Positions 7,951 to 59,361 of a stretch of 64,000 bases of DNA are shown piece after piece (positions within the stretch are counted from its first letter, which is position 1; every line of letters starts with the position of its first letter). The stretch spans positions 675,568-739,567 of the forward strand of contig CAVRZT010000001.1 in NCBI GenBank assembly GCA_963725775.1. Direction: 5' to 3'. This stretch comes from an uncultured Actinomycetes bacterium (GTDB lineage: Bacteria > Actinomycetota > Acidimicrobiia > IMCC26256 > DASPTH01). The notes beneath the pieces were generated by a model. The model saw only the letters and a list, made by a program, of their open reading frames with translations, made no database searches and had not been told where the DNA came from. Position numbers and translations under genes: made by a program.

Positions 7951-7987
7951 GCTCTGACGCTCGGACGCCGAACTGCAGTACGCTCCG

Positions 7988-9343: not shown

Positions 9344-9354
9344 CGAGATGCGGT

Positions 9355-9378
9355 GTCCGATCACGGATGTGATCGGAC
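9355..9378. terminator. Perfect 10-bp stem / 4-nt loop hairpin between convergent genes
   Basis: GTCCGATCAC-GGAT-GTGATCGGAC lies between the stop at 9343 (+) and the stop at 9402 (-). There is no U-tract. Confidence 0.45.
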
Positions 9379-9401
9379 CCGAGCGGTGCAAACGTCCCGG
9401 G

Positions 9402-10247: not shown

Positions 10248-10350
10248 GCCGCGACACTACGCGGTATGCCCGGCCCCGCCGCAGAGTTGGGCCGACCATG
10301 CGCGTCGGACTCATCGGATCCGCAGCCCGCTCGCTGCCGCTGGTTGATCG

Positions 10351-11760: not shown

Positions 11761-11778
11761 GCTAGATGCCCGTGGTGC

Positions 11779-12624: not shown

Positions 12625-12673
12625 GACCGGAACGTAGGTCAGGTCATGACCCCGACGCCACCAGAGCGGGGCG

Positions 12674-14394
12674 CTACCGGGCGGTGACGGTGTCGGTGTC
12701 GCGACCGGAGCGCAGCACGACGCCCGGCGTGGCGCCGGTGGCTGCGCCGTCTTCGACGATCGGCACCCCGCCCACCAGCACGCGCACGATGCCCTTCGAA
12801 CCGGCGGTGAGCCGGGCCGAGTCGCCGGGCAGGTCGGCGACCAGCGTCGCGTCGTCGGCGTCGACGGTGGCGGGATCGAAGACGACGACGTCGGCGACCG
12901 CGCCCTCGCACAGCACGCCGCGGTCGCGCAGCCCGAACAGCGACGCCGGCGCGCTGGTGATGAGCTGGACCGCCCGCTCGAGCGACACCAGCTGACGACC
13001 ACGGAGGCAGTCGGCGAGGAAACGGGTCGTGTAGGGCGCGCCGCACATGCGGTCGAGGTGCGCGCCGGCGTCGGACCCGCCGATCATCGCCCGCGGGTCG
13101 TTCCACACCTCGCGGCGCAGGTCCCACGAGGACTCGTCGTCGTCCTGCGGGATGGGCCACAGGACGGTGCGCAACTCGTCGGCGATCACGATGTCGAGCA
13201 GCGTGCCGAAGTTCGACTGACCGCGCTCGCGCGCGATGTCGCGTACGACCCGACCGCGCAGCTCCTCGTTCTCGGGCGCGTACATGTCACCGAGGCGGTA
13301 GTCGCCGAAGTCGGCGAGGCGACGGAACACACCCGCCTCGGGCGACTGCGACCACTCGAGCATCTGCAGCCGGGTCTCGGGATCGCGGAGACGCACGATG
13401 CGCTCCGGCACCGGCACGCTGAGCACGTCGCTCCAGCCGGGGATCAGCCAGATCCCGCAGAAGTTGAGGAAGCTCATGTTCATCGGGACCTGCACCGGCA
13501 TGGTGAGCGCGACCAGCTGCCCGCCGAGCTCGCGGCGCGGTCGCCGGCCGAGAGCTGGCGCGGCACGCGCTCGGGTTCGCGCGCGTCGACGGTGAGCACG
13601 TTCCAGTTCAGCGGCCGGTTGGCCGCCGCGCTCACCGAGCCGAGCAGCTCGATCTCGTCGTCGGAGAACTGGTCGAGGCAGCCCTGCACGATGCCCTCGA
13701 GCGTGGTGCCCGGGTGCGCGCCCGTCTCCTCGCTCATGGCGAGGAGCTCCTCGGGCGTGGCCCAGCGGCTCGCTACCGGCTGGCCGTCGCCGTCGCTGTG
13801 CGACGACGACTGCGTGAACGAGAAGCCGAGCGCGCCGGCGTCGAGCGCGCGGCCGAGCTCGGCGCGCATCTCGGCGATCTGCTCGGTGGTCGCCTCGCTG
13901 CCGACCGCGTCGGCACCCATCACGTAGCGGCGGATGGCGCAGTGCCCGACGAGGAAGCCGGCGTTGACCGCGATCGTGCCCTCGAACCGGTCGAGGTACT
14001 CGGCGAAGGTCTCCCACTTCCAGTCGACGCCGTGCTCGAGCGCGGGGAGCGGCATGCCCTCGACCCGCGCCATCATCCGGCGCAGGTAGTCGGCGTCGCC
14101 GTCGCGCAACGGGGCGAGGGTGAAGCCGCAGTTCCCGCCGATGACGGTGGTGACGCCGTGCACGCTCGACGGGCTCGCGGTCGGGTCCCACAGCAGCTGC
14201 GCGTCGTAGTGGGTGTGCGGGTCGACGAAGCCGGGGGCGACGACCAGGCCGTCGGCGTCGACGACGGTGGCGGCGGGCTCGTCGATGGTGCCGATGGCGA
14301 CGATGCGCCCGTCGGCGATGCCGACGTCGGCGACCACCCCCGGCGCTCCCGTGCCGTCGACGACCGTCGCGCCCTTGATGATCTCGTCGAGCAT
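12674..14394 (-). pseudogene. N-acyl-D-amino-acid deacylase (D-aminoacylase)-family amidohydrolase, one frameshift
   Basis: The N-terminal piece (MLDEIIKGATVVDGTG..GFVDPHTHYD..NWNVLTVDAREPERVPRQLSAGDRAA) continues in another frame (ELGGQLVALTMPV..GGSDAGAHLDRM..). The switch is near 13530-13538 and is consistent with one missing C. Confidence 0.7.
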
Positions 14395-14559: not shown

Positions 14560-16032
14560 ATGGCCGACTGGCAGAACCACGAGTGGAAGCTCCTGATCGG
14601 GGGCGAGCTCGTCGCCGGGGAGGCCGGCACGGCGCCGATCGTGAACCCGGCGACCGAGGAGGTCGTCGGCGAAGCGCCCGAGGCGTCGGTCGCGCAGGCG
14701 CAGGAAGCCGCCCGCGCCGCGCAGGAGGCCTTCCCGGCGTGGTCGGCGACGCCGGCCGAGGAGCGCGCCGCGCTGCTGCTCGCGGCGGCGAACCGCCTGG
14801 GCGAGCTCGGGCCCGACCTCGTGCCGCTGATCATCTCCGAGACCGGCGCGACCGCGACCGTCGGCTCGCGCATGCAGGTGCCGGTCGCGCTCGAGCGCTT
14901 CCACCGCTACGCCCGCGACGCGACGAAGTCGATCGGCATCCCCATGCCGCCCCAGCCGGTGCAGTCGACGCCGCTCGCGCCCGGTGGGCTCATGGGCGCG
15001 TTCGTGAACCGTCAGCCGGTGGGCGCGGTGGCGTGCATCTCGCCGTACAACTTCCCGCTCACCAACATGGTGGGCAAGATCGCGCCCGCGCTCGCGGTCG
15101 GCTGCACCGTGGTGATGAAGCCTGCGCCGCAGGACCCGTTCGCCATCATCGTGCTCGCCGAGGTGCTCCGCGAGGTGGGCTTCCCGCCCGGGGTCGTGAA
15201 CCTGATCACGTCGGCGGCGCCCGACCCCGCGGCCGCGCTGAGCTCGAGCCGCGACATCGACATGGTGTCGTTCACCGGTTCCACCGCGGTCGGCGCCAAG
15301 ATCTACGAGGCCGGTGGCCCCACGATGAAGCGCATGCTGCTCGAGCTCGGCGGCAAGGGTGCCGCGCTGGTGCTCGACGACGCCGACATCGACGGCGCGG
15401 TCACCGCCATCGCCAGCGTGTGGGGGTTCCACAGCGGCCAGATCTGCACCGCGCCCACGCGCGCGATCGTGCACCGCAGCAAGTACGACGAGATGGTCGA
15501 GCGGCTCGCCGCGGTCGCCGGGAACATGAAGGTCGGCGACCCCCTCGACGAGGACACCATCGTCGGTCCGGTCATCTCCGCGGCCCAGCGCGACCGCATC
15601 GAGAGCTACGTCGCCGCCGGCGGCGATGAGGGCGCGGACATCGTGGTCGACGGTCGCCGTCCCGGCCACATGGAACGCGGCTACTACGTGGCGCCCACGC
15701 TGCTCGCCGGGTGCAAGCCGGAGATGAAGCCGGTGAAGGAAGAGATCTTCGGACCGGTGATCGTGGTGCTGCCGTTCGACGACGACGACGAAGCCGTCGC
15801 CGTCGCCAACAGCACCGACTTCGGGCTCTACGACTACGTGATGACCAGCGACACCGAGCGCGGGTTCCGGCTCGCCGGCCGCCTGCGTTCCGGCAACGTC
15901 GGCATCAACACCGCGCAGCGCAACATGGAGACGCCGTTCGGCGGCTTCAAGATGAGCGGCATCGGGCGTGACGGCGGCGACTTCGGGCTCCACGCGTACA
16001 CCGAGATGCAGTCGGTGGTGTGGCCCGCATGA
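14560..16032 (+). CDS. NAD(P)-dependent aldehyde dehydrogenase
   Basis: 490 aa. ELGGKGA, catalytic-Cys context SGQICTAPTR, FGGFKMSGIGR. Confidence 0.9.
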   Translation: MADWQNHEWKLLIGGELVAGEAGTAPIVNPATEEVVGEAPEASVAQAQEAARAAQEAFPAWSATPAEERAALLLAAANRLGELGPDLVPLIISETGATATVGSRMQVPVALERFHRYARDATKSIGIPMPPQPVQSTPLAPGGLMGAFVNRQPVGAVACISPYNFPLTNMVGKIAPALAVGCTVVMKPAPQDPFAIIVLAEVLREVGFPPGVVNLITSAAPDPAAALSSSRDIDMVSFTGSTAVGAKIYEAGGPTMKRMLLELGGKGAALVLDDADIDGAVTAIASVWGFHSGQICTAPTRAIVHRSKYDEMVERLAAVAGNMKVGDPLDEDTIVGPVISAAQRDRIESYVAAGGDEGADIVVDGRRPGHMERGYYVAPTLLAGCKPEMKPVKEEIFGPVIVVLPFDDDDEAVAVANSTDFGLYDYVMTSDTERGFRLAGRLRSGNVGINTAQRNMETPFGGFKMSGIGRDGGDFGLHAYTEMQSVVWPA

Positions 16033-19996: not shown

Positions 19997-20072
19997 GCCA
20001 ACTGGTTTCCTCGGTCAAGTAGTCGATCGGCCCGAGACCCGCCATACTGGGGTCACACCAAGGAGTCGCAGC

Positions 20073-21278
20073 ATGGATGTCCCCCTGATCATCTCGGTCG
20101 ACGACCACGTCGTGGAGCCCCCCGATCTCTGGACCGAACGCATCCCGGCGAAGTTCAAGGACCGCGCCCCGCGCGTCGAGCGCGATTCGGCGGTCTTCCA
20201 CTTCGAGGGCGGCGTGTTCTCCTACGAGAAGGGCGTCGAGGGCGGCGAGCCGTGCGACTGGTGGCTCTACGACGACCTCGTGTACCCGTTCCCGAAGTTG
20301 TCGGCCGCGGTCGGCTTCTCCGAGCTCGACGTCACGCCCACCACGTTCGACGAGATCCGCCCGGGGTGCTGGATCAAGTCGGAGCGCATCGCCGACATGG
20401 ACGCCAACCACACCGAGGCGTCGGTCTGCTTCCCCAACACGCTGCCGCGCTTCTGCGGGCAGACGTTCCTCGAGCGTGACGACAAGGAGCTCGCGCTCCT
20501 GTGCGTGCAGGCGTACAACGACTGGATGATCGACGACTGGTGCGTGGGTGAGGGCAAGGGTCGGCTGATCCCGCTCACCATGGTGCCGCTGTGGGACGTC
20601 GAGCTCGCCGCCGCCGAGGTGCGCCGGTCCGCCGACCGCGGCAGCTTCGCGGTGACGTTCCCCGAGAACCCGTTCCCGCTCGGGCTGCCGTCGATCCACG
20701 ACAAGAACCACTACTGGGAGCCCTTCTTCCAGGCGTGCCAGGAGACCGACACCACGATCTGCATGCACATCGGCTCGAGCTCGAAGATGCCGACCACCTC
20801 GCCCGACGCACCGTTCATCGTGAGCTCCACGCTCACGTTCTCGAACGCGATGGGTTCGATGTGCGACTACATCTTCTCGGGCACGCTCGAGCGCTTCCCG
20901 ACGCTCAAGATCGCGTACTCCGAGGGCCAGGTCGGCTGGATGCCCTACGTGATGGAGCGGGCCGACAAGCTCGCGGCGGAGCGGTCCGACAACAGCTTCG
21001 GCACCAGTCTGCCGCAGCCGCCGTCGAGCTACGTGAGCCGGATCTACGGCTGCATCTTCGACGACGAGATCGGCCTCGCCAACCGCGACGTCATCGGTAT
21101 GGACCAGATCTGCTTCGAGACCGACTACCCGCACGCCGACTCGACCTTCCCGCACTCCAAGAAGGTGGCCGACGACATCTGCACCCAGGCCGGGCTCAAC
21201 GAGGAGGAGCGTTACAAGCTGCTCCGCGGGAACGCGATCACCGCGTTCGGCCTGGAGCGGTTCGGCATCACCAGTTAG
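20073..21278 (+). CDS. Amidohydrolase_2-type metal-dependent hydrolase (paralog of 4828..6033)
   Basis: 401 aa. ISVDDHVVEPP, LIPLTMVPLWDVELAAAEVR, MHIGSSSKMPTTSPDAP and FETDYPHADSTFPH are shared almost verbatim with 4828..6033. Confidence 0.85.
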   Translation: MDVPLIISVDDHVVEPPDLWTERIPAKFKDRAPRVERDSAVFHFEGGVFSYEKGVEGGEPCDWWLYDDLVYPFPKLSAAVGFSELDVTPTTFDEIRPGCWIKSERIADMDANHTEASVCFPNTLPRFCGQTFLERDDKELALLCVQAYNDWMIDDWCVGEGKGRLIPLTMVPLWDVELAAAEVRRSADRGSFAVTFPENPFPLGLPSIHDKNHYWEPFFQACQETDTTICMHIGSSSKMPTTSPDAPFIVSSTLTFSNAMGSMCDYIFSGTLERFPTLKIAYSEGQVGWMPYVMERADKLAAERSDNSFGTSLPQPPSSYVSRIYGCIFDDEIGLANRDVIGMDQICFETDYPHADSTFPHSKKVADDICTQAGLNEEERYKLLRGNAITAFGLERFGITS

Positions 21279-21285
21279 TCGTTCG

Positions 21286-22029
21286 TTGGCGGACGACACC
21301 CTGCTCGTCGACGACGCCGACGGCGTCCGCACGATCACGATCAACCGGCCCGAGGTCAAGAACGCGCTGACCGCGGCGATGCGGACGCGGTTCAGCGAGC
21401 TGATCGAGGAGGCCGAGCACGACGACGCGACGCGGGCGATCATCGTGACCGCGGTCGATCCGGTGTTCAGCGCCGGGGTCGACTTCAAGGAGGTGGCGAC
21501 GGGCACCGGGGTCGGTGCGGTCACCAACCCGGGTGCGACGTTGCGAGCGGCGACCACGCCCGTGGTGTGCGCGGTCAACGGCGCCTGTGTCACCGGAGCA
21601 CTCGAGATCGCGCTGAGCTGCACGTTCGTCGTCGCGTCGGAGCGGGCGCGCTTCGCCGACACGCACGCGCGGCTCGACGTCGTCGCCGCGTGGGGCCTCA
21701 CCGCGTTGTTGCCCCGGGTCGTCGGCGTGCGGAAGGCCGCCGAGATGTCGATCACCGGCAACTTCGTCGACGCCGCGGAGGCGTTGCGCCTCGGCCTGGT
21801 CAACCACGTCGTGCCCCACGAGGAGCTGCTGCCGTTCACGCGCGCGCTCGTCGGCGACATCGCACCGACCGGGGCCGTGGCCGAGGTCCTGGATCTCTAC
21901 CGTCGGGGTGACGGCCTCCCACTCGCCGACGCGCTGGCGCTCGAGGCGGCGAACGCCGCGGACCGGCGCGTGGATCCCGCGGCCTTCGGGGCGGCGGGAT
22001 CCGCCGCTGCCGCCCGGAGCACGCCGTGA
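21286..22029 (+). CDS. Enoyl-CoA hydratase/isomerase family
   Basis: TTG start. ITINRPEVKNAL, FSAGVDF, VNGACVTGALE. 247 aa. Confidence 0.8.
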   Translation: MADDTLLVDDADGVRTITINRPEVKNALTAAMRTRFSELIEEAEHDDATRAIIVTAVDPVFSAGVDFKEVATGTGVGAVTNPGATLRAATTPVVCAVNGACVTGALEIALSCTFVVASERARFADTHARLDVVAAWGLTALLPRVVGVRKAAEMSITGNFVDAAEALRLGLVNHVVPHEELLPFTRALVGDIAPTGAVAEVLDLYRRGDGLPLADALALEAANAADRRVDPAAFGAAGSAAAARSTP

Positions 22030-22647
22030 CCGACGACTCGACGCGCGCCCGGGTCGTCGACGCCGCCGTCGCCTGCATCCTCGACGAAGGCTTCTACCGC
22101 GCCAGCTCCAACAAGATCGCGCGCCGCGCCGGCGTCACGTGGGGCGTCATCCAGTACCACTTCGGTACGCGGGAGGCGCTCATGCTGGCGGTGCACGAGC
22201 GCGGCGTCGACGAGCTCGACCGGTGCCTCACCGATGCCGTCATCACCGGCGACACGCTCGAGCAGCGGGTCGACTCGTTCGTCGACGCGCTCTGGACGTA
22301 CTACCGGCGGCCCGAGTTCCTGGCGTACATGCAGGTGATCCTCAACCTGAGCCACGATCCGACCACCGCCGACTCGACGCAGGCCGCGCTCGAAGTCGGT
22401 CGGCGCACGGGTCAACGAGCGGGTGCCGGCGCTGGTGCGCGCGGTGGTCGGGCCCGATCGGTCCGACGCCGAGGTCGAACGGATCGGCCGGTTCTTCTAC
22501 AACGTCGTGCGCGGGCTCGCGCTCGACCAGGAGCTCCTCGAGGCCATGCCCGTCGAGCACTCGACCACGGAGGAGTTCGACGCGCAACGAGCCGAGCTCG
22601 TACGCGTGCTCGCACGCGCGACGGGGGCTACGGGCGCCGCGAGCTGA
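22026..22647 (+). pseudogene. TetR-family regulator, one frameshift
   Basis: GTG 22026 overlaps the upstream stop (GTGA). The HTH FYRASSNKIARRAGVTWGVIQYHFGTREAL is intact. After ..AALEVGRRT the sensible sequence (VNERVPALVRAVVGPDRSDAEVERIGRFFYNVVRGLALDQ) is in another frame (ORF 22423..22647). The switch is at the GGG run near 22408-22410. Confidence 0.65.
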
Positions 22648-23074
22648 GTGCGCCGGCGGCGAGCGCCAGGCAGAGGGGCGAGTACACGCGTCGATCGAGG
22701 CGGCGGAACCGGGTCGACACGCTCCCCGGTGATGCCAGGTCGGTGCGGCCGGCGAACCCGAGCGCGGCGCGGCTCGCGAGCACCGCGGCCACGCCGGTCA
22801 CCCCGGCGCGCTGGATGCCGCGCGGCAGGCCGGGAACATCGGCGACGAGCGCGCCGGCGATGGTCAGCGCGCCGGCGACCGCGAAGCACGCAGCCGGGGA
22901 CGGGACGCTCCCTCGCCCGATCACGGCTTCGCTGAGGTCGTCGCGAGCCGAGAACGGGAACGAGGAGCCGAGCCCCCACGCCACGTGGAGCCCGGCGAGC
23001 GAGCAGAGGGTGGCCGCGGTGAGGCCGCGGACGGGAGCCATCATCGTTCCGGGAGCTGCCCACTTCCGGTCCAC
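22628..23074 (-). CDS. Small integral membrane protein (DUF3995-like)
   Basis: 148 aa with 4 hydrophobic segments. LAGLHVAWGLG resembles the DUF3995 signature as I recall it. Intact, and last gene of the decayed operon. Confidence 0.5.
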   Translation of the reverse strand: MDRKWAAPGTMMAPVRGLTAATLCSLAGLHVAWGLGSSFPFSARDDLSEAVIGRGSVPSPAACFAVAGALTIAGALVADVPGLPRGIQRAGVTGVAAVLASRAALGFAGRTDLASPGSVSTRFRRLDRRVYSPLCLALAAGALSSRRP

Positions 23075-23083: not shown

Positions 23084-24186
23084 CTACGCGGGAACGGGTT
23101 GCGGCAGCTCGGCGAGCTGGTCGAGGTCGAACCCGAACACCTTGGCCGCGTTGCCGCTCACGATGGCGTCGAGGTCTTCCTGGCTGACGCCGTCGAACTG
23201 GTCGGCGTTCACGCTCTGCGACTCCGGCCACGTGCCTTCGGGGTGCGGGTAGTCGTTGCCCCACATGAGCGTCTCGACGCCGGTGATGCCGCGGTTGTTG
23301 ATCGCGACCGGGTCGTACATGAACGTCGCCGCGCACTGGCGCCGGATCAGCTCGCTCGGCTTGAGCGACAGCTTCGGCGACGCGTACATGCTGTGGTCCT
23401 CGTAGATCGCGTCGGCCTGCGTCATGATCCACGCCGAGCCACGACGCGCCGGTCTCGACGGTGACGATCTTCAGCTCGGGGAAGCGGTCGAGCGCGCCAC
23501 CGGCGGCGATCGTGAGCATCACCATGGGGCCGTCGAGCTGCGCGCCCATGAGGTAGTTGACGACCGCGCCGCCGGGGCCGCGCACCACGCGCGGCTCGTG
23601 GCCGGTGCCGGAGTGGAAGGTGAGCGGGAGGCCGAGCTCCTCGGCGACGGCCCAGAACGGGTCGTAGGCCGCGTCGTTGTAGGGCCGCTGACGGCACCTG
23701 GGCGGGAAGGAACAGCGCGCGGAAGCCCTGGTCGGCCACGACCTTGGCGTCTTCGATCGCGCCGTCGATGTCGAGCATCGACACCATGCCGACGGGGAGC
23801 AGCCGGTGGATCGTCGAACACGTCGCCGGCCCACGCGTTGTACGCGCGGCACAGCTGACGCTGGAACTCGGCGTCGTCGCTCGCGAAGCACGCCTGCAGC
23901 GCGAACGTCGGGAAGATCACCTCGGCGCTCACGCCGTCGCGGAGCCTGGTCGCGCAGACGGTCGTCGGCGTCGAAGTCGCCGACGATCGCGACCTCACGT
24001 TCGGACGCCGGCATCAGCTTGCGCGGCCCGAGACCCTTCGATCAGCAGGCGTGCGCCAGTCGCCGACGGTCTCGATGCGCGGGCACGCGGTCGCGGTACG
24101 CGGCGTCGACCCGCTCGCGCGTAGAGCTCGATCGGCTCGGTGACGTGCGAGTCGGTCGAGATGTAGATCGCGTCCCGATAGGTCAT
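23084..24186 (-). pseudogene. Amidohydrolase_2-type hydrolase, multiple frameshifts
   Basis: Recognisable pieces sit in all three frames. They are MTYRDAIYISTDSHVTEPIELY (24186), ERVDAAYRDRVP, RIETVGDWR, EVAIVGDFDADDRLRDQ and GVSAEVIFPTFALQACFASDDAEFQRQLCRAYNAWAGDVFDD. Further pieces are MVSMLDIDGAIEDAKVVADQGFRALFLP, YNDAAYDPFWAVAEELGLPLTFHSGTGHEP..VETGASW and a C-terminal WGNDYPHPEGTW. Confidence 0.75.
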
Positions 24187-24204
24187 GGAGTGAGCCTACG
24201 AGGG

Positions 24205-25364
24205 TCAGGGGGAGAGGACCAGACCGCTCCGCCCCGCCGACACGAGCACGTGCTCGGCGCCGGCGATCTGGTTGGCTGCGGTGCCGCGGAGCTGGCGCAC
24301 GCCTTCGACGATGTTGTTCATCCCGTGGATGTAGCCCTCGCCGAGCAGCCCGCCGTTGGGGTTGACCGGGAGCCTTCCCGCCCACCCGATGTGGCCGTCG
24401 GCGATGAAGTCGCGGGCCTCGCCCCGCCCGCAGAAGCCGAAGGCCTCGAGCTGGAGGAACACGATCGGGGTGAAGTTCTCGTAGATCATGGCGACGTCGA
24501 TGTCGTCGGGCGTGAGGCCGGCTCGGCGTAGAGGCGCCGGCCCATCGCCGCCGCCTCCTGGTGCTCGCCGAGGTCCTGGTCGTAGTAGGCGAACATCTCG
24601 CTGCCGCCCTCGCAGGTGCGCCTGGGTGGCCGAGAGGATGTCGACGGGCACGGTGGATCGAGGTCGCGCGGCCCGGTCTGCTCGGGTGACCACCAGCGCG
24701 ACGCCGCCGTCGCTCTCCTGGCAGCAGTCGAGCTTGCGCAGGATGGGTTCGACGATCCAGCGACTGGCCTGGTGGTCCTCGAGGGTGATGGGCCGCTAGT
24801 AGAACGGGGCGTTCGGGTTGGTGCTGGCCCAGTCGCGGGCGACGACGGGTAGCGCCCGAAGTCGACGTTGGTGAGGTCGTGCTCGTGCATGTAGCGCTGG
24901 AAGCCAGAGGGCGTAGATCTTCGCCGGCGTGTCGAGCCCGAACGGCATGTGGAAGTTCCACGCCGGGTCGGGGTCACCCGCCCGTTGCTGCGGTTGGCCG
25001 AAGCGGTGGCCGGACCGCTCGTTGAAGGCGCGGTAGACGAGCACGGCGTCGGCGTGGCCGCTCTCCACGGCGGCGGCGGCGAGCTGCACGGTGGCGCACG
25101 CGCCGCCGCCGCCGCCACGCGTGCGGGCCGTGAAGCGCAGCTCGGGCACCCCGCGCACCGGATGAGCGCCAGCTCGTCGTTGCACGTCCATCGCGAAGGT
25201 GACGGCGCCGTCGATGTCGGCGCGGGGTGAGCCCGGCGTCGGCGGATCGCGGCGGCGACCGCTTCGGCCGCCAGCTGCAGGGTGCAGCGGCCCGAGTTCT
25301 GCGAGAACTCGGTGTGGCCGATGCCGACGATCACGGCGCGTCGCTCGGCGGGGACGTCGCTCAT
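24205..25364 (-). pseudogene. SCP-x/nsLTP-type thiolase-like protein, multiple frameshifts plus an in-frame TAG
   Basis: Pieces, part 1: MSDVPAERRAVIVGIGHTEFSQNSG, ADIDGAVTFAMDV, PELRFTARTRGGGGGACATVQLAAAAVESGHADAVLVYRAFNE, WNFHMPFGLDTPAKIYALW and FQRYMHEHDLTNVDFG. Pieces, part 2: VVARDWASTNPNAPFY-TAG(24796-24798)-RPITLEDHQASRWIVEPILRKLDCCQESDGG, GSEMFAYYDQDLGEHQEAAAMGRRLY and GLTPDDIDVAMIYENF..LPVNPNGGLLGEGYIHGMN. Confidence 0.75.
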
Positions 25365-25760
25365 CGGCGACTCCGAGCCGGCCGGCAGGAACTGCGGGAG
25401 CACGACGTCGTCGACGGTCGTCGATGCTCAGAGCGTCGACGGCCATGCCGTTGTGGATCCGTCGTCGGGCCGCGTCGATCAGGTTGGAGACGATGCGGGT
25501 GCCCGTCCTCGAGGTCGACGAGGATGACGACCCGCGGCTCGTCGTCGGGCTCGGTCGGATGGTGCGAGACGATCCACGTGGACGGTGCCGCGGCCGGTCG
25601 ACTCCAGCGTGTCGAACTCGAGCGAGCCGCAGCGGGCGCACATCGGCGCGGGAGGGTGGCGCACGATGCCGCACGCCGCGCAGCGCTGGATGAGCAGCGT
25701 CCCGTCGGCGATCGCCTCCCAGAAGAAGGCGTCGTCGCGGTCGGGGATCGGGGGCTTCAC
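25361..25760 (-). pseudogene. DUF35 (Zn-ribbon + OB-fold) protein, frameshifted
   Basis: GTG 25760: MKPPIPDRDDAFFWEAIADGTLLIQRCAACGIVRHPPAPMCARCGS (CxxC..CxxC ribbon). It continues in another frame (IVSHHPTEPDDEPRVVILVDLEDGTRIVSNL..). The 3' end is approximate. Confidence 0.6.
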
Positions 25761-25770
25761 GGCCGGGCAG

Positions 25771-28217
25771 TCATGCGCGCTCCTGGGTCGAGGGTGGCTG
25801 CTTGACGACGCGCGGCGAGCAGCTTGTCGATCGCGTCGTCGTCGTAGCCGAGCTCGTGCAGGATGGCGACGGTGTCCTGGCCGACGCATCAGCGGGGACC
25901 CGTGCACGACGGCCCGGCGTCTCGGAGAGGTCGAACAGGAGGCCCGACCTGCCGATGTCGCCCGACATGCGGGTGGCTGGTACTTCGTGACCCACCCCTT
26001 GTCGATCATCTCGGGGTCGTCGAACAGGTCGAGCACGAAGTCGGGCGTCGACGATCTCGCACGGCACGCCGGCGGCGTCGAGCGCGCGAACCAGTGCTCG
26101 GCGGTGCGCGATGCGGAACGCGGGCTCCGACGCGCGTCGAACGCGGTGTCGGCGGTCGAGCCCCGACGCCGAGGGCCGCCGCCGAGCGCCGGCGCGCTCG
26201 TCGTCGTCGACCGGCGGCGACGCACAGCCAGCCGTCGGCGGTCTCGTAGAGGCGGTGGCACGCGTGCCACCCCAGCTGCATCGCGATCGAGCTGCGGCCG
26301 GTCGCCGCGGTTGCCGTCGGCGTCGACTCCACGCGATCGACGTGTTGAGCAGGTGGGCGTACATGATCGATGGTGTCGACGAACTGGCCCTCGCCGGTGC
26401 GGTCGCGGTGGTAGAGCGCCTGCATGATCCCGATCGCCGACAGGAACCCGTTGCCGGTGTCGCCGAGCGACATGACGGTCCAGAACGGGATGCCGTCGTG
26501 GTCGAGGCCGCCGTCGACCCAGTCGAGGCCGGCGAGCGCGGCACCGGTCTGGTCGTTGCCCGGGGAGACCGTCGCGTTCGCCGGGTCGAAGCCGGCGCGT
26601 GTGGCAGTAGATCAGGTCGGGCTTGATCGCCGCAGGCTCTCGTAGTCGACGCCGAGGCGGACCGCGGCCTCGTAGCGCATGTTGTGCTGCACGACGTCGG
26701 CCGACTCGACGAGGCGGTGCAGGATCGCCATCGCGTCGGGGTCCTTGAGGTTCATCGAGATGCTGCGCTTGCCCCGGTTGCAGCACATCGCGATGTGGGT
26801 GCTCATCCAGTAGAAGTCGTGCAGCGGGTTGACCTTGATGACGTCGGCGCCGAGGTCGGCGAGCATCATCGTGCCCCACGGGCCGGCGATCGCGAGCCCG
26901 AGGTCGAGCACACGCACGCCCTCGAGCGGTGCGGTCAGGCGCCCCGCGTCGGCCGAGCGCGCGACGCGGCGGCCGGGCGCCGCGAGCGCGTCGGCCTCGG
27001 CGAGCACCTCGTCGGTGTCGGCGCCGAGGGCCGGAGGCGCGGCCGGCGCGTCGGTCGGGCACGCGTGCAGCTCGTAGACACGGCCCGACCTGACGGACCG
27101 GACCGAGCTCGGGGTCGATCGACCTCGATGACGCAGCCGTCGGCCAGGAACGCGGGGTCGTGCGAGGGCCTCCTCGGGCGACCGCACCGGCTGGAGGGGC
27201 ACGCCGACCTCGGCGCCGAGCTCGACCCACGGCTCCGCCGGGAACTTGGCGAAGGCCGCGGCCATCACCGGTTGGTAGTGGTGGAGCAGCAGCATCTCGT
27301 TGACGTCGATACCGATGCGCGTCGGTCGCTCTCGCGGGGCCGGGTCGTCTTCTCGGTGCGTGCACGCGGTCGCCCTCGGAGACGCCGAGGACGAAGTCGG
27401 GGAGGGGTACCCACTGGTGGATCCACCGGCCGTCGGCGCAGCGGAACACGCCCTTGCGGCCCGCGCGGATCGCCGATCCAGCTCTGGTAGTTCTCGGTCT
27501 CGACGTGCTCGACGCGCTGCCACGACGACGAGCGTGGTGGCGAGCACCCCCTGCAGCAGCGAGGTCGCGACCCGCTGGCCGCGACCGGTCTGCTCGCGCA
27601 CGCGGAGCGCGGCGCTGATCGCGATGGTGGCCAGGTAGCACGAGGCCAGGCTCACCCACGGCACGCCCGGCGAACAGCGGGCCCGGGCGCGCGGCGCGCC
27701 GACCCAGCAGTCGTCGGGCACGACGAGGTCGGCGAACGCCGGCGGGAGCCCGGCGAGGCGGGCGAGGGTGCCGCCGGGGACGCCGCGGCTCTCCCAGTGG
27801 TGGCCGGTGCGCGCCGCGACCAGGGCGTCGTAGCCGGGGCGATCGGCGTGACGGCCGTCGTCGCCGTAGGCCGTGATCGAGCAGTAGACGAGGCGCGGGT
27901 TGACCGCGTGCAGCGCGTCGAAGTCGAGGCCGAGGTCCGCGGTCGTGCCCGGGCGCGTAGCTCTCGACCAGCACGTCGGCGCGCGTCGCGAGCGCGAGCA
28001 GGCGGTCGCGGTCGGCGGCGTCGCGGAGGTCGAGCTCGACGCTGCGCTTGCCGCGGTGCCAGACCTGCGCGCCCGAGAACGCGCGGGTCGGGTCGCCGCC
28101 GGGCGGCTCGATCTTGGTGACGCGCGCGCCGTGGTCGGCGAGCAGCATGCCGGTCATCGGCCCCGCGATCCCCGTGGTGAGGTCGAGGACGTCGACCCCG
28201 TCGAGCACTCCGGTCAT
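25771..28217 (-). pseudogene. Two tandem family-III CoA-transferase modules (fused or adjacent), more than a dozen frameshifts
   Basis: Module 1 starts MTGVLDGVDVLDLTTGIAGPMTGMLLADHGARVTKIEPPGGD at 28217 (ATGA overlap with the upstream stop). Module 2 starts LEGVRVLDLGLAIAGPWGTMMLADLGADVIKV near 26930 with no stop between the modules in that frame. Conserved pieces alternate among all three frames, for example KGVFRCADGRWIHQWVP, IGIDVNEMLLLHHYQP, IDPELGPVRQVGP, MSLGDTGNGFLSAIGIMQALYHRDRTGEGQ and PDFVLDLFDDPEMIDKGWVTKYQ. Confidence 0.7.
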
Positions 28218-28609
28218 GTAGCCACCGCCGTTCGGTAGACGTCGGGATTCGAGAATTCGCGCCAGCGGAAGACCAGGCCGTCGCGGAACTGCAGGAACAT
28301 GATGTAGTGGTTCTGGTAGCGCTGCCCACCGCCGCGCACGTGGTTGTCGCCGCGCACCTCGACGATCACGAGATCGGGGTCGATGGTGGGGAAGTCGTCG
28401 ACGATCACGTACGACACCGAGTCGAAGCGATCCTGCACCGCGCCGAGCATGGCCGCCAGCTCGGCCTTCCCGTGGCGTTCGATCCCGTAGTACGGCGCCT
28501 CGTACACGACGTCGTCGGTGCACCGGTCGAGCTGACCCTGCGGATCGCCCGCGGAGAAGCAGGCGAGCATCGTGCGCACGGTCTCGAGGTTGCCCATCGG
28601 CGGGAGCAT
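28214..28609 (-). CDS. NTF2/SnoaL-like protein
   Basis: MLPPMGNLETVRTMLACFSAGD.. (alternative start 28597). About 130 aa with an NTF2-like pattern. Intact. Its stop overlaps the CoA-transferase ATG. Confidence 0.7.
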   Translation of the reverse strand: MLPPMGNLETVRTMLACFSAGDPQGQLDRCTDDVVYEAPYYGIERHGKAELAAMLGAVQDRFDSVSYVIVDDFPTIDPDLVIVEVRGDNHVRGGGQRYQNHYIMFLQFRDGLVFRWREFSNPDVYRTAVAT

Positions 28610-28620
28610 AGTAGTTACTA
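28609..28620. promoter_or_regulatory. AT-rich near-palindrome TAGTAGTTACTA in a divergent promoter
   Basis: It sits in the 40-bp gap between starts 28609 (-) and 28650 (+). It is the only A/T-rich stretch locally. Confidence 0.25.
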
Positions 28621-28649
28621 GGGAGCCTGGCTGGGGTAGGTTTCGCCCC

Positions 28650-29138
28650 ATGCCGGAGGTCCAGCCCGAGTCCCAGAAGAGCGAGCCGTTCGAGGAGCCG
28701 CCCCGGGAGGAGATCCCGGGGATCTCCCGCGGCCACGTCCAGTACATGGAGTCGTCCGACGCGGAAGAGGTGTGGTGCATCGCCGGGATGCACCACGTCG
28801 TGCTCCACACCATCGGGCGCAAGAGCGGGAACGAGCACAAGGTCGCGTTGCCCTACTGGGTCGACCGCGACGGACACCGCATCATCGTGGCGTCGTTCTC
28901 GGGCGCGCCCGACCACCCGTCGTGGTACCTCAACCTCAGCGACCGCGACGCCAACCCCGAGGTGAAGTTCCGCGTGCAGCGCGGCGTGTTCTGGGCCGAC
29001 GCGCAGGTCCTCGACGGCGCCGACTACGCCGAGACGTGGACCGCGCTCAACGCCGACCGTCCGTGGTACGACGACTACCAGAGCCGCACCGATCGGCAGA
29101 TCCCGCTGGTGCGCCTCGTCGAGCTCCGTCCCGCCTGA
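28650..29138 (+). CDS. Deazaflavin (F420H2)-dependent nitroreductase/quinone-reductase family (Ddn-like)
   Basis: 162 aa. HTIGRKSGNEHKVALPYW..IIVASFSGAPDHPSWYLNL matches the family signature. Confidence 0.8.
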   Translation: MPEVQPESQKSEPFEEPPREEIPGISRGHVQYMESSDAEEVWCIAGMHHVVLHTIGRKSGNEHKVALPYWVDRDGHRIIVASFSGAPDHPSWYLNLSDRDANPEVKFRVQRGVFWADAQVLDGADYAETWTALNADRPWYDDYQSRTDRQIPLVRLVELRPA

Positions 29139-29145
29139 GGCCGGC

Positions 29146-29871
29146 GTGGACGTCAGCGGCATCATCTTCGCGTCGGTCGACTGCGACGCCGACGCGATCG
29201 AAGACTGGAACCGGTGGTACGACCTCGAGCACCTGCCGCCGAACATCGCGCTGCCGGGGATCATGACCGGCAAGCGCTACGTCGCGCCGCCTGAGCTGCA
29301 CGACGTGCGCGAACCGGCGAACCGGCTCGACGGCTTCGCCGACGGTCGTGGCGTCCACGTCACCGTGTACACGCTCGCCGGCGATCCCGCGCAGGTGCTC
29401 GCCGACATGACGAGTTACCGCGACAAGCTCGAGGACGCCGACCGGATGTTCGCGCCGGAGAAGAAGGTCGTGCGGGCCGGCGACGCGATGACGTGGACGT
29501 GGGGCGTGGCCGATCCGACGTTGAAAGCCGATCCCGGCGACGTGCCCCACGTGCAGCACACCTCGATCCGCGTGGTCCTGCGCCACGGAGGCGACGACGA
29601 AGCGCGTGACACCGTCGCACCCACGGCTGTCGCCGTCGACGGTGTGCACGCGGTGCTCGGTCACCGGTCGATCACCGATACGACGCTCGACTGCGACCTC
29701 TACCTGCTCGAGGGTGACCCCGCGGCGGTGACGCGCGCCGCGCGTGCCGCCGCGCCGTACGGCGCCGGCACCGACGTCGTGCTCGACGCGCCGTTCCGGC
29801 TCATCGTGCCGTTCGACTACGGCTTCGCCGACGCGATCCGGGCGAGCTTGCTGCCCCAGACCATCGCCTGA
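29146..29871 (+). CDS. Hypothetical protein, NRWY-x-x-(D/E)H family (member A)
   Basis: 241 aa, GTG start. N-terminal IIFASVDCDADAIEDWNRWYDLEHLPPNIALPGIMTGKRY. Distant paralog of 51564..52376. Confidence 0.65.
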   Translation: MDVSGIIFASVDCDADAIEDWNRWYDLEHLPPNIALPGIMTGKRYVAPPELHDVREPANRLDGFADGRGVHVTVYTLAGDPAQVLADMTSYRDKLEDADRMFAPEKKVVRAGDAMTWTWGVADPTLKADPGDVPHVQHTSIRVVLRHGGDDEARDTVAPTAVAVDGVHAVLGHRSITDTTLDCDLYLLEGDPAAVTRAARAAAPYGAGTDVVLDAPFRLIVPFDYGFADAIRASLLPQTIA

Positions 29872-29882
29872 AGGGACGCACC

Positions 29883-31105
29883 ATGGAAATCGGCGACTCC
29901 CCGGAAGAAGCGGCGTTCCGGGCCGAAGCCCGGAGCTGGCTCGAGCAGCACGCCACCCGGCTCGACGACGACGCCGCGTCACCCCAGGGGAGCTACGGCG
30001 CCGCGGGGCTCCAGGAGCACATGGACCAGTCGCGCGCGTGGCAGCGCACCCTCTACGACGAGGGCTGGGCCGGCATCACGCTGTCGAAGGACTACGGCGG
30101 GCGCGGCGGCACGGGCATGCAGCAGGCGATCTTCAACGAGGAGCAGGCGCAGTTCGACGTGTCGGTCGGCGCGTTCTCGGTCGCGGTGTCGATGGTGGTC
30201 CCGACGCTGATCGCGCACGGCACCGAACAGCAGAAGAAGGAGCACGTCGACGCCATCCTCCGGGGCGACGAGCTCTGGTGCCAGCTGTACAGCGAGCCTG
30301 GTGCCGGTTCCGATCTCGCGTCGCTCGGTACCGCGCGGGGTGCTCGACGGTGACGAGTACGTCGTCAACGGGCAGAAGGTGTGGAACAGCTTCGCCCAGT
30401 TCGCCGACTACGGCATCCTGCTCGCGCGTACGGATCCCGACGCGCCGAAGCACCGGGGGATCACCTACTTCATCGTCGACATGAAGACGCCCGGCATCGA
30501 CGTGCGCCCCCTCGTGCAGATCACCGGCGTGGCGCACTTCAACGAGGTGTTCCTCACCGACGTGCGCATCCCGGCCGAGAACGTGCTCGGCGATGTGAAC
30601 AACGGATGGGCGCGTCGCGCAGACCACGCTCGGCAACGAGCGCGCCATGATCGGCGGCGCGCAGGGTGGGCGCCAGGTGGCCGACATCATCGCCCTCGCC
30701 CGACGGATGGGCGTAAACGACGATCCGGTCGTCCGTCAGGAGCTCGCGCGGTTGGTGGTGCGCGCCGGGGTCATCCGGTACCTCGGTTTCCGGCTCCGCA
30801 CCGCGATGAGCAAAGGCCAGATGCCCGGGCCCGAGGCGTCGGTGCTCAAGCTCGCGTACTCGGAGCACCTCGCCGCGACCGGTGATCTCGTGCTGAGCCT
30901 CCTCGGACCCGAGGCCACGCTCTGGGGCGACGACGCACCCGACGACGCGCGCTGGCAGGATCAGTTCCTGAGCCAGTGGGCGAGTCGGATCGGTGGGGGG
31001 ACGGACCAGGTGCAGCGCAACGTGATCGGCGAACGGGCGCTCGGCCTGCCGCGTGACCCGTCGAGTGACAAGGACCTGCCGTGGCGCGAGCTGGTGAAGC
31101 CGTGA
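29883..31105 (+). pseudogene. Acyl-CoA dehydrogenase, two frameshifts
   Basis: Three consecutive ORFs (29883.., 30301.., 30647..) carry contiguous ACAD sequence. These are LWCQLYSEPGAGSDLASLGT / VLDGDEYVVNGQKVWNS..NNGW / ..ERAMIGGAQGG..GGTDQVQRNVIGERALGLP. The switches are at G-run 30337-30340 and near 30612. Confidence 0.75.
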
Positions 31106-31893
31106 GGACCGTCGCGATCACCGGTTCCGGGTCGGGCATGGGTGCCGCGTTGGCGGCGCGGCTCGAGGCCGGAGGCGACCGCGTCATCGGCATCGACGTG
31201 AAGCACGCCGAGGTCGAGGCCGACCTCGGCACCGCCGACGGTCGCGCCGAGGCGATCGCGCGGGTCGGTGAGCTCTCGGGCGGCACGCTCGACGGTCTGG
31301 TGACGCTCGCGGGCCTCGCGGGCCTGCCCGAACGCCCGGCGTCGTTGCTGATCTCGGTCAACTACTTCGGCACCGTCGAGCTGCTGGCGGGCCTGCGGCC
31401 CCTCCTCGCCCGCGGCGCGAATCCGGCGGCGGTGGCGATCAGCTCGAACTCGACCACCTGTCAGCCCGGGCTCGACGAGGCGCTCATTGCCAGCTGCCTG
31501 GAGGGCGACGAAGCCGCGACGCGCGCCCTGGCCGGTGAGGGCGAGTCGCTCAGCACGTATCCCGTCACCAAGACCGCGCTGTCCTGGTGGGTGCGGCGCC
31601 ACGCGCCGACGGCCGACTGGGCGGGGGCGGGGATCACTCTCAACGCGGTCGCGCCGGGCGCGATCCAGACGCCGCTGCTCCAGGAAGGGCTCGACCACCC
31701 CACGGTCGGTCCGATGATCGAAGCGTTCAAGTCGCCGCTCGGTCGCAACGGCCGCCCCGAGGAGATCGCCGCGCTCATCGCGTACCTCCTCGGGCCTGAC
31801 GCCCGGTTCTTCTGCGGGTCGGTGCTGTTCTGCGACGGTGGGATGGACGCGCAGTTCCGCAGTGACGACTGGCCCAAACCCTGGAGGCCCTGA
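31102..31893 (+). CDS. Short-chain dehydrogenase/reductase
   Basis: GTG 31102 overlaps the ACAD stop (GTGA). ITGSGSGMGAA Rossmann motif and YPVTK active-site pattern. Confidence 0.8.
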   Translation: MRTVAITGSGSGMGAALAARLEAGGDRVIGIDVKHAEVEADLGTADGRAEAIARVGELSGGTLDGLVTLAGLAGLPERPASLLISVNYFGTVELLAGLRPLLARGANPAAVAISSNSTTCQPGLDEALIASCLEGDEAATRALAGEGESLSTYPVTKTALSWWVRRHAPTADWAGAGITLNAVAPGAIQTPLLQEGLDHPTVGPMIEAFKSPLGRNGRPEEIAALIAYLLGPDARFFCGSVLFCDGGMDAQFRSDDWPKPWRP

Positions 31894-32336
31894 TGGACAC
31901 CCTCGAAGAGCTCGGCGCGATCGAGCAGATCAAGAAGCTGAAGGGGCGGTACTTCCGCTGCATGGACACCAAGGACTGGGACGGCTTCCAAGCGGTGTTC
32001 GCGCCCGACGCGACGATGGACACGACGCAGGAAGCGCCGAACATCGACGTCGTGCACGGTGATGCGAACATCCGCCAGTTCGTCGAGGGGTCGGTCGGTC
32101 CGGTCGTCACCGTGCACCACGGGCACATGCCCGAGATCGAGATCACGTCGCCGACGACCGCGCGCGGCGTGTGGGCGATGCAGGACTTCCTGCAGATGCC
32201 CGAGGGCTCGCCGCTCGGGATGAAGAGCATGACCGGCTACGGCCACTACACCGAGACCTACGAGCTCGTCGACGGTCAATGGCTGATCAAGACGCTCGTG
32301 CTCACCCGCCTGCGGCGCGACGTCGAGATGGCGTGA
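31893..32336 (+). CDS. NTF2/SnoaL-like protein (BaiE-type dehydratase-like fold)
   Basis: 147 aa. IEQIKKLKGRYFRCMDTKDWDGF is typical of the SnoaL_4 group. The start overlaps the SDR stop (TGATG). Confidence 0.75.
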   Translation: MDTLEELGAIEQIKKLKGRYFRCMDTKDWDGFQAVFAPDATMDTTQEAPNIDVVHGDANIRQFVEGSVGPVVTVHHGHMPEIEITSPTTARGVWAMQDFLQMPEGSPLGMKSMTGYGHYTETYELVDGQWLIKTLVLTRLRRDVEMA

Positions 32337-32515
32337 GCGTGAGCGAGCCGGGTATCCCGGTGAGTAGCGAACGCCCAAGAGTGATGGCGTGAGCGTGAGC
32401 GAGCCGGGTATCCCGGTGAGTAGCGAACGCCCAAGAGTGATGGCGTGAGCGTGAGCGAGCCGGGTATCCCGGTGAGTAGCGAACGCCCAAGAGTGATGGC
32501 GTGAGCGTGAGCGAG
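32328..32515 (+). repeat. Perfect 56-bp tandem repeat, 3 full copies + 20-bp partial copy
   Basis: The unit is ATGGCGTGAGCGTGAGCGAGCCGGGTATCCCGGTGAGTAGCGAACGCCCAAGAGTG. Copies at 32328-32383, 32384-32439 and 32440-32495 are 100% identical. A partial copy lies at 32496-32515. Confidence 0.97.
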
Positions 32516-33480
32516 TGACGTACGACCCGAGGTTCCGCCCGCCGCAACCGCCGACGCCGGCACCCGGCGAGCTCACGATCGAGCGCTCGGTGGTGCGCGA
32601 CGACCTCGCCCTCGCGTACGTGCGTGAAGGTGTCGGTGGGTACCCGTTGCTCCTGCTACACGGGTACCCGGAGACCAAGCGCATCTGGTGGCGCAACATC
32701 GCGCCGCTCGCAGCCGCGGGCTTCGAGGTCATCGTCCCTGATCTCCGCGGCTACGGCGACAGCGATCTCTCGCCCGACGACGTCTACGACCTCGCGGTGT
32801 ACTCGCGCGACGTCCACGCGCTCGTGCACGACGTGCTGGGCCACACGCGGTGCGCCGTCGCCGGCGGCGACATCGGCGGTGTCGTCGGCGTCGACCTCGT
32901 GCACCGCTTCGACGGCTTCGTCGAGAAGTTCTGCTTCTTCAACACCGTGCCCCCCGCCGCGATCGAGCAGTACGCGGCCGCGGGGATGGACTACGGCTCC
33001 TTGAGCGCGCTCAGCGACGGCCCGACCGGCGACTACCGCGAGCTCCAGGGCGCGCGGCCCGACGACCTGGCGGCGATGCTGGCCACCGACGCGGCGCGCC
33101 GGCAGTGGATCGCGGGCATGTACCAGAGCCGGCTGTGGGCCTCGCCCGGCACGTTCGGTCGGGCCGACGTCGACTTCATGACGGAGCCGTTCGCCGACGA
33201 AACGAGGTTGCGCGCCGGGTGGTCGGCGTACCAGCTCGGGCACGGTCGTCCGATGACCGAACCGCCCTTGCTCGGCGGAACGGTCGACGTGCCCACGCTC
33301 CTGCTCTACGGCACCGACGACCACGTGGTCGGCGAGGACTTCGTGTGGTTCTGCGAGCGGGCCTTCACCGATCGCATCGGACCGCTCCTGATCCCGGGCG
33401 CCGGCCACTTCCTGCAGTGGGAGCGCGCCGACATCTTCAACCCACTGCTCACCAGCGTCTTCGGCGACCTCGTCCGCTGA
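32515..33480 (+). CDS. Alpha/beta hydrolase (epoxide-hydrolase / haloacetate-dehalogenase-like)
   Basis: GTG start. LLLLHGYPE, VPDLRGYGDS and the Asp-nucleophile elbow GGDIGG. 321 aa. Confidence 0.8.
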   Translation: MTYDPRFRPPQPPTPAPGELTIERSVVRDDLALAYVREGVGGYPLLLLHGYPETKRIWWRNIAPLAAAGFEVIVPDLRGYGDSDLSPDDVYDLAVYSRDVHALVHDVLGHTRCAVAGGDIGGVVGVDLVHRFDGFVEKFCFFNTVPPAAIEQYAAAGMDYGSLSALSDGPTGDYRELQGARPDDLAAMLATDAARRQWIAGMYQSRLWASPGTFGRADVDFMTEPFADETRLRAGWSAYQLGHGRPMTEPPLLGGTVDVPTLLLYGTDDHVVGEDFVWFCERAFTDRIGPLLIPGAGHFLQWERADIFNPLLTSVFGDLVR

Positions 33481-59279: not shown

Positions 59280-59346
59280 GCGCGCGCTCCTTCAGGTGGG
59301 CTCGGGCCCCGTGCGGGTGCCCGGCCGTGATCCCGTCAGCATAACC

Positions 59347-59361
59347 GAAAACTGCGTTTTC
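59347..59361. other. A/T-rich palindrome GAAAAC-TGC-GTTTTC
   Basis: 6-bp perfect arms overlapping the DUF35 stop codon. Followed by an 80-nt gap before the amidohydrolase start. Confidence 0.25.

Follow-up and report, generated by a model that had tools for sequence, protein, structure and literature searches.

Genes and features of the operon

The minus strand of the window (the whole stretch of 64,000 nucleotides analysed here) harbours an operon which starts with a SnoaL/NTF2-like gene and continues through the genes for a CoA-transferase, a DUF35 protein, a thiolase-like protein and an amidohydrolase. The features considered below are as follows.

28214 to 28609, minus strand: SnoaL/NTF2-like gene, the first of the operon, intact (Pfam SnoaL_2; 0 private indels against 18 orthologs)
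25771 to 28217, minus strand: fused double family-III CoA-transferase gene (∼802 aa after correction; ∼28 frameshifts; the first ∼260 nt are clean)
25361 to 25770 (ends approximate), minus strand: DUF35 gene with zf-ChsH2 and OB_ChsH2_C, recognised by Pfam on the corrected translation (∼3 frameshifts)
24205 to 25364, minus strand: thiolase-like (SCP-x/Ltp-type) gene (∼13 frameshifts and one in-frame TAG; Pfam Thiolase_C_1)
24796 to 24798, minus strand: the in-frame TAG of the thiolase-like gene, between NAPFY and RPITLEDH
23084 to 24186, minus strand: Amidohydro_2 gene (8 single-base insertions, all within 23436 to 24119; its final 113 codons contain none)
22628 to 23074, minus strand: DUF3995 gene downstream of the operon, intact (Pfam DUF3995; gapless single-frame tblastn matches to L015, L010, L001 and L007)
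23436 to 27954, minus strand: the lesion tract, which is the actual feature under study (∼52 private frameshifting indels, with ∼42 insertions and 11 deletions, mostly of 1 nt, and one nonsense codon)
24450 to 26000, minus strand: putative mosaic segment within the tract, more similar to the cassette of L023, an unrelated JGI contig, than to the clade matched by the flanks

The gene identities proposed in an earlier note on this DNA hold in Pfam searches of both the raw and the corrected sequence. The raw fragments gave SnoaL_2, Amidohydro_2 and Thiolase_C_1, with DUF3995 in the flank, while the indel-corrected translations gave CoA_transf_3 in two stretches of one 802-aa protein (E=1.6e-154), zf-ChsH2 with OB_ChsH2_C (DUF35), Thiolase_C_1 and Amidohydro_2. 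The corrected CoA-transferase shares 74–82% identity with its intact orthologs and the corrected amidohydrolase 89–92% with its own, and the best match of the corrected thiolase-like protein in a protein search of 5.8 billion clusters is a full-length JGI protein of 385 aa (86%). In agreement with the same note, the flanking NTF2-like and DUF3995-like genes are both intact.

Pfam content and gene order are those expected of a DUF35/thiolase-like/CoA-transferase III cassette, which is colinear across more than 12 loci as well as in L023. The four-gene core is kept in many Acidimicrobiia MAGs, and L023 carries it in another genomic context. In L002, L004, L008 and L009 the orthologous operon is colinear and intact, with 0–3 private non-3n indels each. 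A copy from the same species, sought for shared lesions, was not found among the 22 loci of the genome-collection scan, the best of which reached 89% protein identity (SnoaL-like gene) and ∼85% DNA identity. Searches for exact matches to the DUF3995 protein and to the paralogous amidohydrolase were likewise negative.

Extent and character of the lesion tract

The tract was mapped by scoring private indels against the clean orthologs L002, L004, L008 and L009, and against up to 17 loci, as well as by GC3 phase segmentation. The four clean operons gave 53 private non-3n indels in the window, of which TT at 23064–23065 was taken as an alignment-edge artefact and dropped, leaving 52; this count replaced a first one with 9 loci, some of them noisy, by which the CoA-transferase was corrected only in part. 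The alignment to orthologous loci, proposed in the earlier note as a check, showed that every lesion is private to the window sequence. The frame switching described there is real, and one of its examples, GTGCCCGCGCATC at 24074–24086, was found exactly as described; however, its counts (at least 6 switches in the amidohydrolase, about 7 in the thiolase-like gene and more than 12 in the CoA-transferase) proved too low once the frameshifts were assigned to genes by coordinates (8, ∼13 and ∼28, respectively, with 3 in the DUF35 gene). GC3 phase jumps ∼26 times in 23428–28221, whereas elsewhere in the window phase segments extend over 0.4–2.3 kb.

Lesion density is ∼11/kb within the tract and ∼0.12/kb outside it, a clustering far above chance, and the flanks at 20040–22590 and 28240–33460 contain 0–1 lesions per block. 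The tract starts ∼350 nt inside the amidohydrolase gene and ends ∼260 nt inside the CoA-transferase gene. Since both edges fall within genes, the lesion boundary is not defined by genes. Neither large deletions nor IS elements were seen in the tract.

The neighbours, stated earlier to be intact, are not all so. Seven more frameshifts break other genes of the window: those at 22392, 30331 and 30608 were mapped as private +1 insertions, and those at ∼6394, ∼56809, ∼60863 and ∼61464 are each seen as a change of frame inside a single gene. The paralogous triad at 58–61 kb has a frameshift of its own and shares only 35–45% protein identity with the operon, too little to serve as a reference for frame mapping. 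At this identity it is not a redundant copy.

Among the single-base lesions there are 31 insertions and 8 deletions, a ratio of ∼4:1, and 17 of the 31 insertions have no identical neighbouring base. Run lengths come close to the random expectation (45% lie in runs of at least two, compared with 38% under the null), and homopolymer slippage was rejected on this ground. This spectrum is not the one expected of in vivo indels, namely slippage in homopolymers or repeats, with deletions no rarer than insertions. We also dismissed programmed frameshifting and recoding, by argument, given ∼50 shifts in both directions and no recurring motif.

The inserted base equals the alternative allele carried by relatives at the adjacent column in 22/31 insertions (72%), compared with 10.3±2.6 under the null and with 36% in a re-alignment simulation (Fisher P=3e-4). 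Private insertions of six MFD loci (L012, L011, L015, L010, L001 and L018) show this signature too, at 64–83% (P<=0.02 each; null ∼33–36%). The MFD assemblies are Nanopore-only and were produced with metaFlye and one round of Medaka polishing (PMC12313526). The match between inserted bases and adjacent alternative alleles points to mixed templates during consensus building.

In one of these loci, L012, the same CoA-transferase contains a separate cluster of 20 frameshifts. A general tendency of this operon to attract errors was not borne out, as the Nanopore MAGs L002, L004 and L009 have clean operons, and in L001, L010 and L018 errors are more numerous in the flanks than within the operon.

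The in-frame TAG was found exactly where the earlier note had placed it. Relatives carry CAG (Q) or GAG (E) at this site, and the stop is therefore a single-base substitution. It had been objected that a nonsense substitution is not typical of indel error; this objection is weak, since one stop is to be expected when ∼50 mismatches fall at random in 4.7 kb.

Origin of the lesions

Removal of the private indels yields a 367-aa amidohydrolase, a CoA-transferase of ∼800 aa and a thiolase-like ORF in which the TAG is the sole interruption. In the corrected ORFs GC3 is 0.89–0.98 each and 0.966 overall, with one stop. At invariant columns the amidohydrolase has 3/280 private changes, and the flank genes together 13/1148. 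The CoA-transferase, with 29/510 private amino-acid changes, shows a modest excess, part of which is due to residual uncorrected frameshift patches. The 40/290 apparently private changes of the thiolase-like protein were rejected as a sign of decay, as nearly all of them are common to a second natural clade.

In our reading the tract of ∼52 lesions is no decayed operon but very probably a consensus error, arising from long reads of low depth and/or mixed haplotypes, and the organism itself most likely has all four genes in working order of frame. This is favoured because the lesions are private, insertion-biased, almost free of substitutions and placed beside variable sites whose alternative allele they carry, and because their removal restores conserved ORFs, the tract ignores genes and the signature recurs in the Nanopore MAGs of relatives. 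Small private indels, restorable ORFs and like lesions scattered elsewhere, all found here, are what a tract of long-read consensus errors would show. The locally poor stretch of assembly, which the earlier note had offered as its alternative, is thus favoured by the indel spectrum, the tract edges and the allele signature. The window seems to belong to a metagenome-assembled genome, presumably a long-read one, of a soil Acidimicrobiia-like actinobacterium. Consensus indels in Nanopore data have been documented to shift the frame of called genes, and ∼40x coverage is required for near-finished genomes (PMC9262707); gene-fragmenting errors have been described for long-read assemblies (PMC12007338).

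The consensus for 23436–27954 would have been built from few reads and/or from two diverged haplotypes of the catabolic cassette; we infer low depth or a mixed pileup at this place. At sites of single-base difference between the haplotypes, the two alleles may have been retained one after the other, resulting in a one-base insertion and a frameshift. The remaining indels and the few mismatches would come from random read errors, one such mismatch giving rise to the TAG.

Several observations count against an artefact. The local excess is 100-fold and its edges are fairly sharp, so that a special local circumstance is needed; there is one nonsense substitution, and there is the modest excess of private changes in the CoA-transferase. 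Moreover, Nanopore errors classically take the form of homopolymer deletions and not of non-homopolymer insertions.

Sliding identity, for which the DNA of L023 (P0005) stood in for that of P0001, the closest thiolase-like protein, and protein alignment with P0001–P0005 indicate that segment 24450–26000 may be a mosaic or a second haplotype, and this indirectly suggests that the tract contains mixed haplotypes. The same segment, by its closeness to the L023/P0001 clade, speaks for a variant of the artefact in which the tract was filled, through a mis-join or a graph bridge, from one or more reads of a different low-abundance relative, and would be both foreign and unpolished; the tract is also about as long as a single read. 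However, most of the tract, namely the CoA-transferase at 26200–27954 and the amidohydrolase at 23436–24186, shows the same affinity to the clade of relatives and the same identity level as the clean flanks, and in the comparison with relatives synteny is not seen to break at either end of the tract, which makes such a foreign patch unlikely. The tract is almost certainly an ordinary, badly resolved patch of a long-read metagenome assembly.

The headline of the earlier note, decay of a redundant operon copy, would make the lesions real mutations in a cassette that has become dispensable in this lineage. It is true that the lesions strike four neighbouring genes of a single pathway while two small flanking genes remain intact, that reading frames kept whole in orthologs are broken here (∼52 indels and one TAG), that one lesion is a nonsense substitution, and that a distant paralogous triad is present at 58–61 kb. 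Nevertheless, true pseudogenisation is very improbable. Lesions of a decaying operon would be spread over it and confined to it, whereas here the tract starts and ends within genes and leaves the SnoaL-like and DUF3995 genes untouched. Natural substitutions outnumber indels 5–10:1 in mutation-accumulation and pseudogene studies. Neutral-decay simulation with the corresponding 250–500 substitutions predicts 6–11 new stops, 11–22% amino-acid change and GC3 of 0.88–0.93, while the ∼52 indels observed are accompanied by a single stop, by a GC3 of 0.966 and, in the amidohydrolase, by private changes at ∼1% of the amino acids. Hence the corrected frames display neither the substitution excess, nor the loss of codon bias, nor the several stops expected under relaxed selection. 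According to Mira, Ochman and Moran (2001), bacterial pseudogenes are reportedly deletion-biased, whereas insertions prevail 4:1 here; the indels are nearly all 1–2 nt long and lie mostly outside homopolymers, large deletions and IS elements are missing, and the inserted bases mimic adjacent alternative alleles as do the errors of Nanopore MAGs. Finally, the paralogs, being only 35–45% identical, offer no redundancy.

Annotation of pseudogenes at this locus would wrongly score the loss of a conserved CoA-transferase/DUF35/thiolase-like/amidohydrolase pathway. The combination of private indels, no substitution load, a gene-independent tract and inserted bases equal to the adjacent alternative allele provides a diagnostic that separates artefact from decay without recourse to reads.

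It is hardly credible that the indels are real and stem from a local insertion-biased burst, such as error-prone repair synthesis on the template of a diverged second copy, by which the cassette was inactivated without substitutional decay. Real lesions would point to a local indel-generating process of a new kind, and the evidence is strongly against it. Least probable of all is local, insertion-biased hypermutation in vivo, for example by error-prone repair synthesis across a 4.5-kb gap: the raw pattern of dense small indels with few substitutions in one interval is all that fits it, no bacterial process known to us inserts single bases outside homopolymers at a rate of ∼1% over kilobases, a like signature occurs at scattered sites of the window and in several unrelated Nanopore MAGs, and the adjacency of alternative alleles points to mixed templates in consensus building.

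Comparison with known systems

Pairs of a DUF35 protein (ChsH2-type) and an SCP-x/Ltp2-type thiolase-like protein occur with CoA-transferases in actinobacterial cassettes for side-chain or aldol-cleavage catabolism, and archaea have complexes of DUF35, thiolase and HMG-CoA synthase. The operon resembles the DUF35/thiolase cassettes in that zf-ChsH2 with OB_ChsH2_C, Thiolase_C_1, two CoA_transf_3 and Amidohydro_2 occur together. Unlike ChsH1/ChsH2, however, it has no hydratase (MaoC) partners, and an amidohydrolase_2 and a SnoaL-like protein are found instead.

The tract is reminiscent of pseudogene clusters of the Mycobacterium leprae type, in which adjacent pathway genes carry many frameshifts and a stop codon. 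It differs from decay of that type in the lack of a substitution load, the intact codon bias, the bias towards insertions and an interval that does not coincide with gene or operon boundaries.

A closer likeness is provided by long-read consensus errors (PMC9262707; PMC12313526; PMC12007338), where single-base indels fragment conserved genes in a patchy manner and reference-guided correction restores the ORFs, similar lesions being present in this contig and in related Nanopore MAGs. The tract departs from the usual errors of this kind in its density (∼11/kb over 4.5 kb versus ∼0.12/kb in the remaining window) and in its preponderance of non-homopolymer insertions over the textbook homopolymer deletions. 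As the lesions adjoin variable sites, mixed haplotypes rather than plain low accuracy are suggested.

Position and extent of the lesions

Six minus-strand genes occupy 28.6 to 22.6 kb of the window, the G+C content of which is 70%. Pfam searches, run both on raw fragments and on indel-corrected translations, supported all six identities, listed in order:

First, minus strand: SnoaL/NTF2-like gene
Second, minus strand: fused double family-III CoA-transferase gene
Third, minus strand: DUF35 gene (zf-ChsH2 and OB_ChsH2_C)
Fourth, minus strand: thiolase-like gene (Thiolase_C_1)
Fifth, minus strand: Amidohydro_2 gene
Sixth, minus strand: DUF3995 gene

The four central genes carry a tract of frameshifts which is very probably a local consensus-error tract of long-read metagenome assembly. 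As judged from the ORF listing and the GC3 frame plot, the coding phase switches at intervals of 50-400 nt from about 23.4 to 28.2 kb, and a six-state GC3-phase Viterbi model divides this interval into about 26 segments, compared with segments of 0.4-2.3 kb in the rest of the window. The frame-jumping described in the earlier note is thereby borne out, and the TAG at 24796-24798 and the example GTGCCCGCGCATC at 24074-24086 were found exactly as given there.

Relatives were sought with the SnoaL-like protein in a collection that represents each species by one genome; the scan yielded 22 loci, nearly all from soil Acidimicrobiia/actinobacterial MAGs, including many Microflora Danica (MFD) MAGs and some Illumina "SMAG" assemblies. 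The closest shows 89% protein identity and about 85% DNA identity, and more than 12 of the 22 have a colinear operon. Lesions were counted as indels unique to one sequence (private) in multiple alignments. Against four clean references (L002, L004, L008 and L009, with 0-3 private indels of a length not divisible by three apiece), the window has 53 such indels, namely 42 runs of inserted and 11 of deleted bases; TT at 23064-23065 was taken to be an alignment-edge artefact, leaving 52 lesions. In a ten-block comparison, 45 private frameshifting indels fell in the window's four operon blocks and one in total in its six flank blocks (20040-22590, 28240-33460). No private frameshifts were found in the SnoaL-like and DUF3995 genes relative to their orthologs, so that the flanking genes are indeed intact. 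The outermost lesions, at 23436 and 27954, place the tract edges about 350 nt into the amidohydrolase gene and about 260 nt into the CoA-transferase gene. Since lesion spacing averages about 100 nt, clean margins of this size are unlikely had the four genes been the target.

Seven further frameshifts lie outside the tract (about 0.12 per kb, versus about 11 per kb inside), the cyclase-, beta-lactamase/esterase- and luciferase-like names being read from translations rather than from Pfam:

22026-22647, plus strand: TetR-like regulator gene downstream of the operon, private +G at 22392, N- and C-terminal halves in different frames
29883-31100, plus strand: acyl-CoA dehydrogenase gene, private +C at 30331 and +G at 30608, three frames, five orthologs intact
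About 6394: cyclase-family-like gene, protein halves in different frames
About 56809: beta-lactamase/esterase-like gene, halves in different frames
About 60863: N-terminus of the paralogous thiolase-like gene, halves in different frames
About 61464: luciferase-like oxidoreductase gene, halves in different frames

Lesion spectrum

The single-base lesions comprise 31 insertions (G 16, C 10, A 3, T 2) and 8 deletions. Slippage was rejected as their source, because 17 of the 31 insertions have no identical base beside them and the run-length distribution is near random, 45% of insertions lying in runs of two or more compared with 38% for a random tract base. Bacterial pseudogenes show a deletion bias, which this spectrum does not match. 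Instead, the inserted base equals the relatives' alternative allele at a directly adjacent alignment column in 22 of 31 cases; random columns gave 10.3±2.6, and 22 was reached in 0 of 2000 draws. A variable column adjoins 29 of the 31 (null 22.3, P=0.0035). As a control for aligner bias, random bases were put into the corrected sequence and re-aligned to the same references, whereupon 36% (79/221) matched, significantly below the observed value (Fisher P=3e-4). Where mixed reads differ at a base, the consensus would write both bases side by side.

Corrected genes, mosaic segment and rival explanations

Once private insertions are removed and private deletions filled, the amidohydrolase gene forms an ORF of 367 aa and the CoA-transferase one of ~800 aa, while the TAG is the sole interruption of the thiolase-like ORF. 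GC3 is 0.89-0.98 per ORF and 0.966 across the combined 4,662-nt coding sequence. The corrected proteins share 89-92% (amidohydrolase), 74-82% (CoA-transferase) and about 77% (thiolase-like) identity with their orthologs, and a full-length JGI protein matches the thiolase-like one at 86%. At ortholog-invariant columns the window differs at 3/280 in the amidohydrolase, 13/1148 in the flank genes summed, 29/510 in the CoA-transferase (in part leftover uncorrected frameshift patches seen in the alignment) and 40/290 in the thiolase-like protein. Nearly all of the last are common to a second natural clade of JGI proteins (P0001-P0005), and degeneration was therefore rejected as their source. The genes beneath the tract are most likely healthy. 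As a catabolic cassette (DUF35/thiolase-like/CoA-transferase/amidohydrolase), the operon is ordinary and widely conserved.

The segment at about 24450-26000 (CoA-transferase 3' end, DUF35 gene and the greater part of the thiolase-like gene) is 0.84-0.87 identical to the cassette of L023, an unrelated JGI soil contig, versus 0.73-0.79 to the flank-matching clade, and is also nearer to P0001-P0005 than to that clade. This affinity may reflect a recombinant allele or else a consensus of mixed haplotypes. As the rest of the tract is flank-like, the comparison points to diverged cassette forms that recombine or co-occur. A patch built from a different relative's reads, which overlaps the main explanation, would account for this segment, but the flank-like remainder speaks against it, and it has only a small chance of being correct. 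The L023 cassette (7201-12879) has the same four-gene core (CoA_transf_3 of 789 aa, DUF35, thiolase-like, Amidohydro_2), then a TetR gene, in a genomic context entirely unlike the window's; hence the cassette may be mobile as one unit.

True pseudogenes of a decayed operon are improbable. Natural ratios are 5-10 substitutions per indel, so that about 50 real indels imply 250-500 substitutions. Simulated on the corrected coding sequence, these created 6-11 new stops, altered 11-22% of the amino acids and left a GC3 of 0.88-0.93; at most one stop had a probability of 0.03 at 250 substitutions and occurred in 0/500 simulations at 500. The observed single stop and GC3 are compatible with at most about 50-100 substitutions, and the single TAG is therefore unremarkable in a noisy tract. 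Thus, while the sequence pattern recorded in the earlier note is real, its alternative of poor local assembly is favoured over operon decay, against which the insertion excess and a spectrum unlike that of slippage also argue. Nor is the supposed redundant copy at 58-61 kb one: the paralogous triad (Amidohydro_2, DUF35, thiolase-like; 58107-61130) is a separate system, its proteins sharing just 35-45% identity with those of the tract. That the indels arose in a real burst in vivo is highly improbable.

Comparison with other assemblies

Consensus error at this tract would follow from a heterogeneous sampled population with low depth per haplotype, an account consistent with the alternative-allele signature, the depth being inferred. 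Six MFD loci carry private insertions with an adjacent alternative allele at comparable rates (L012 64%, L011 67%, L015 75%, L010 73%, L001 83%, L018 81%; P<=0.02 for each). Of the 32 private frameshifts that L012 carries in operon blocks, a single CoA-transferase block (~11000-13500) accounts for 20, and L011 has 14; these two loci come from the same sample, with genomes about 85-90% identical. In the other four, errors are dispersed over operon and flanks; L018 has a frameshift within its DUF3995 gene (15145-15487). Since Illumina and several MFD MAGs have almost no private frameshifts, the operon is not systematically error-prone, and error patches vary by assembly. MFD MAGs are Nanopore-only, metaFlye-assembled and polished with one Medaka round (PMC12313526). 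Given the same allele-match excess in the six MFD loci, the window lesions are, in our reading, probably tied to the technical error class of such Nanopore-only loci, and Nanopore consensus sequences are well known to contain frameshift artefacts (PMC9262707; PMC12007338).
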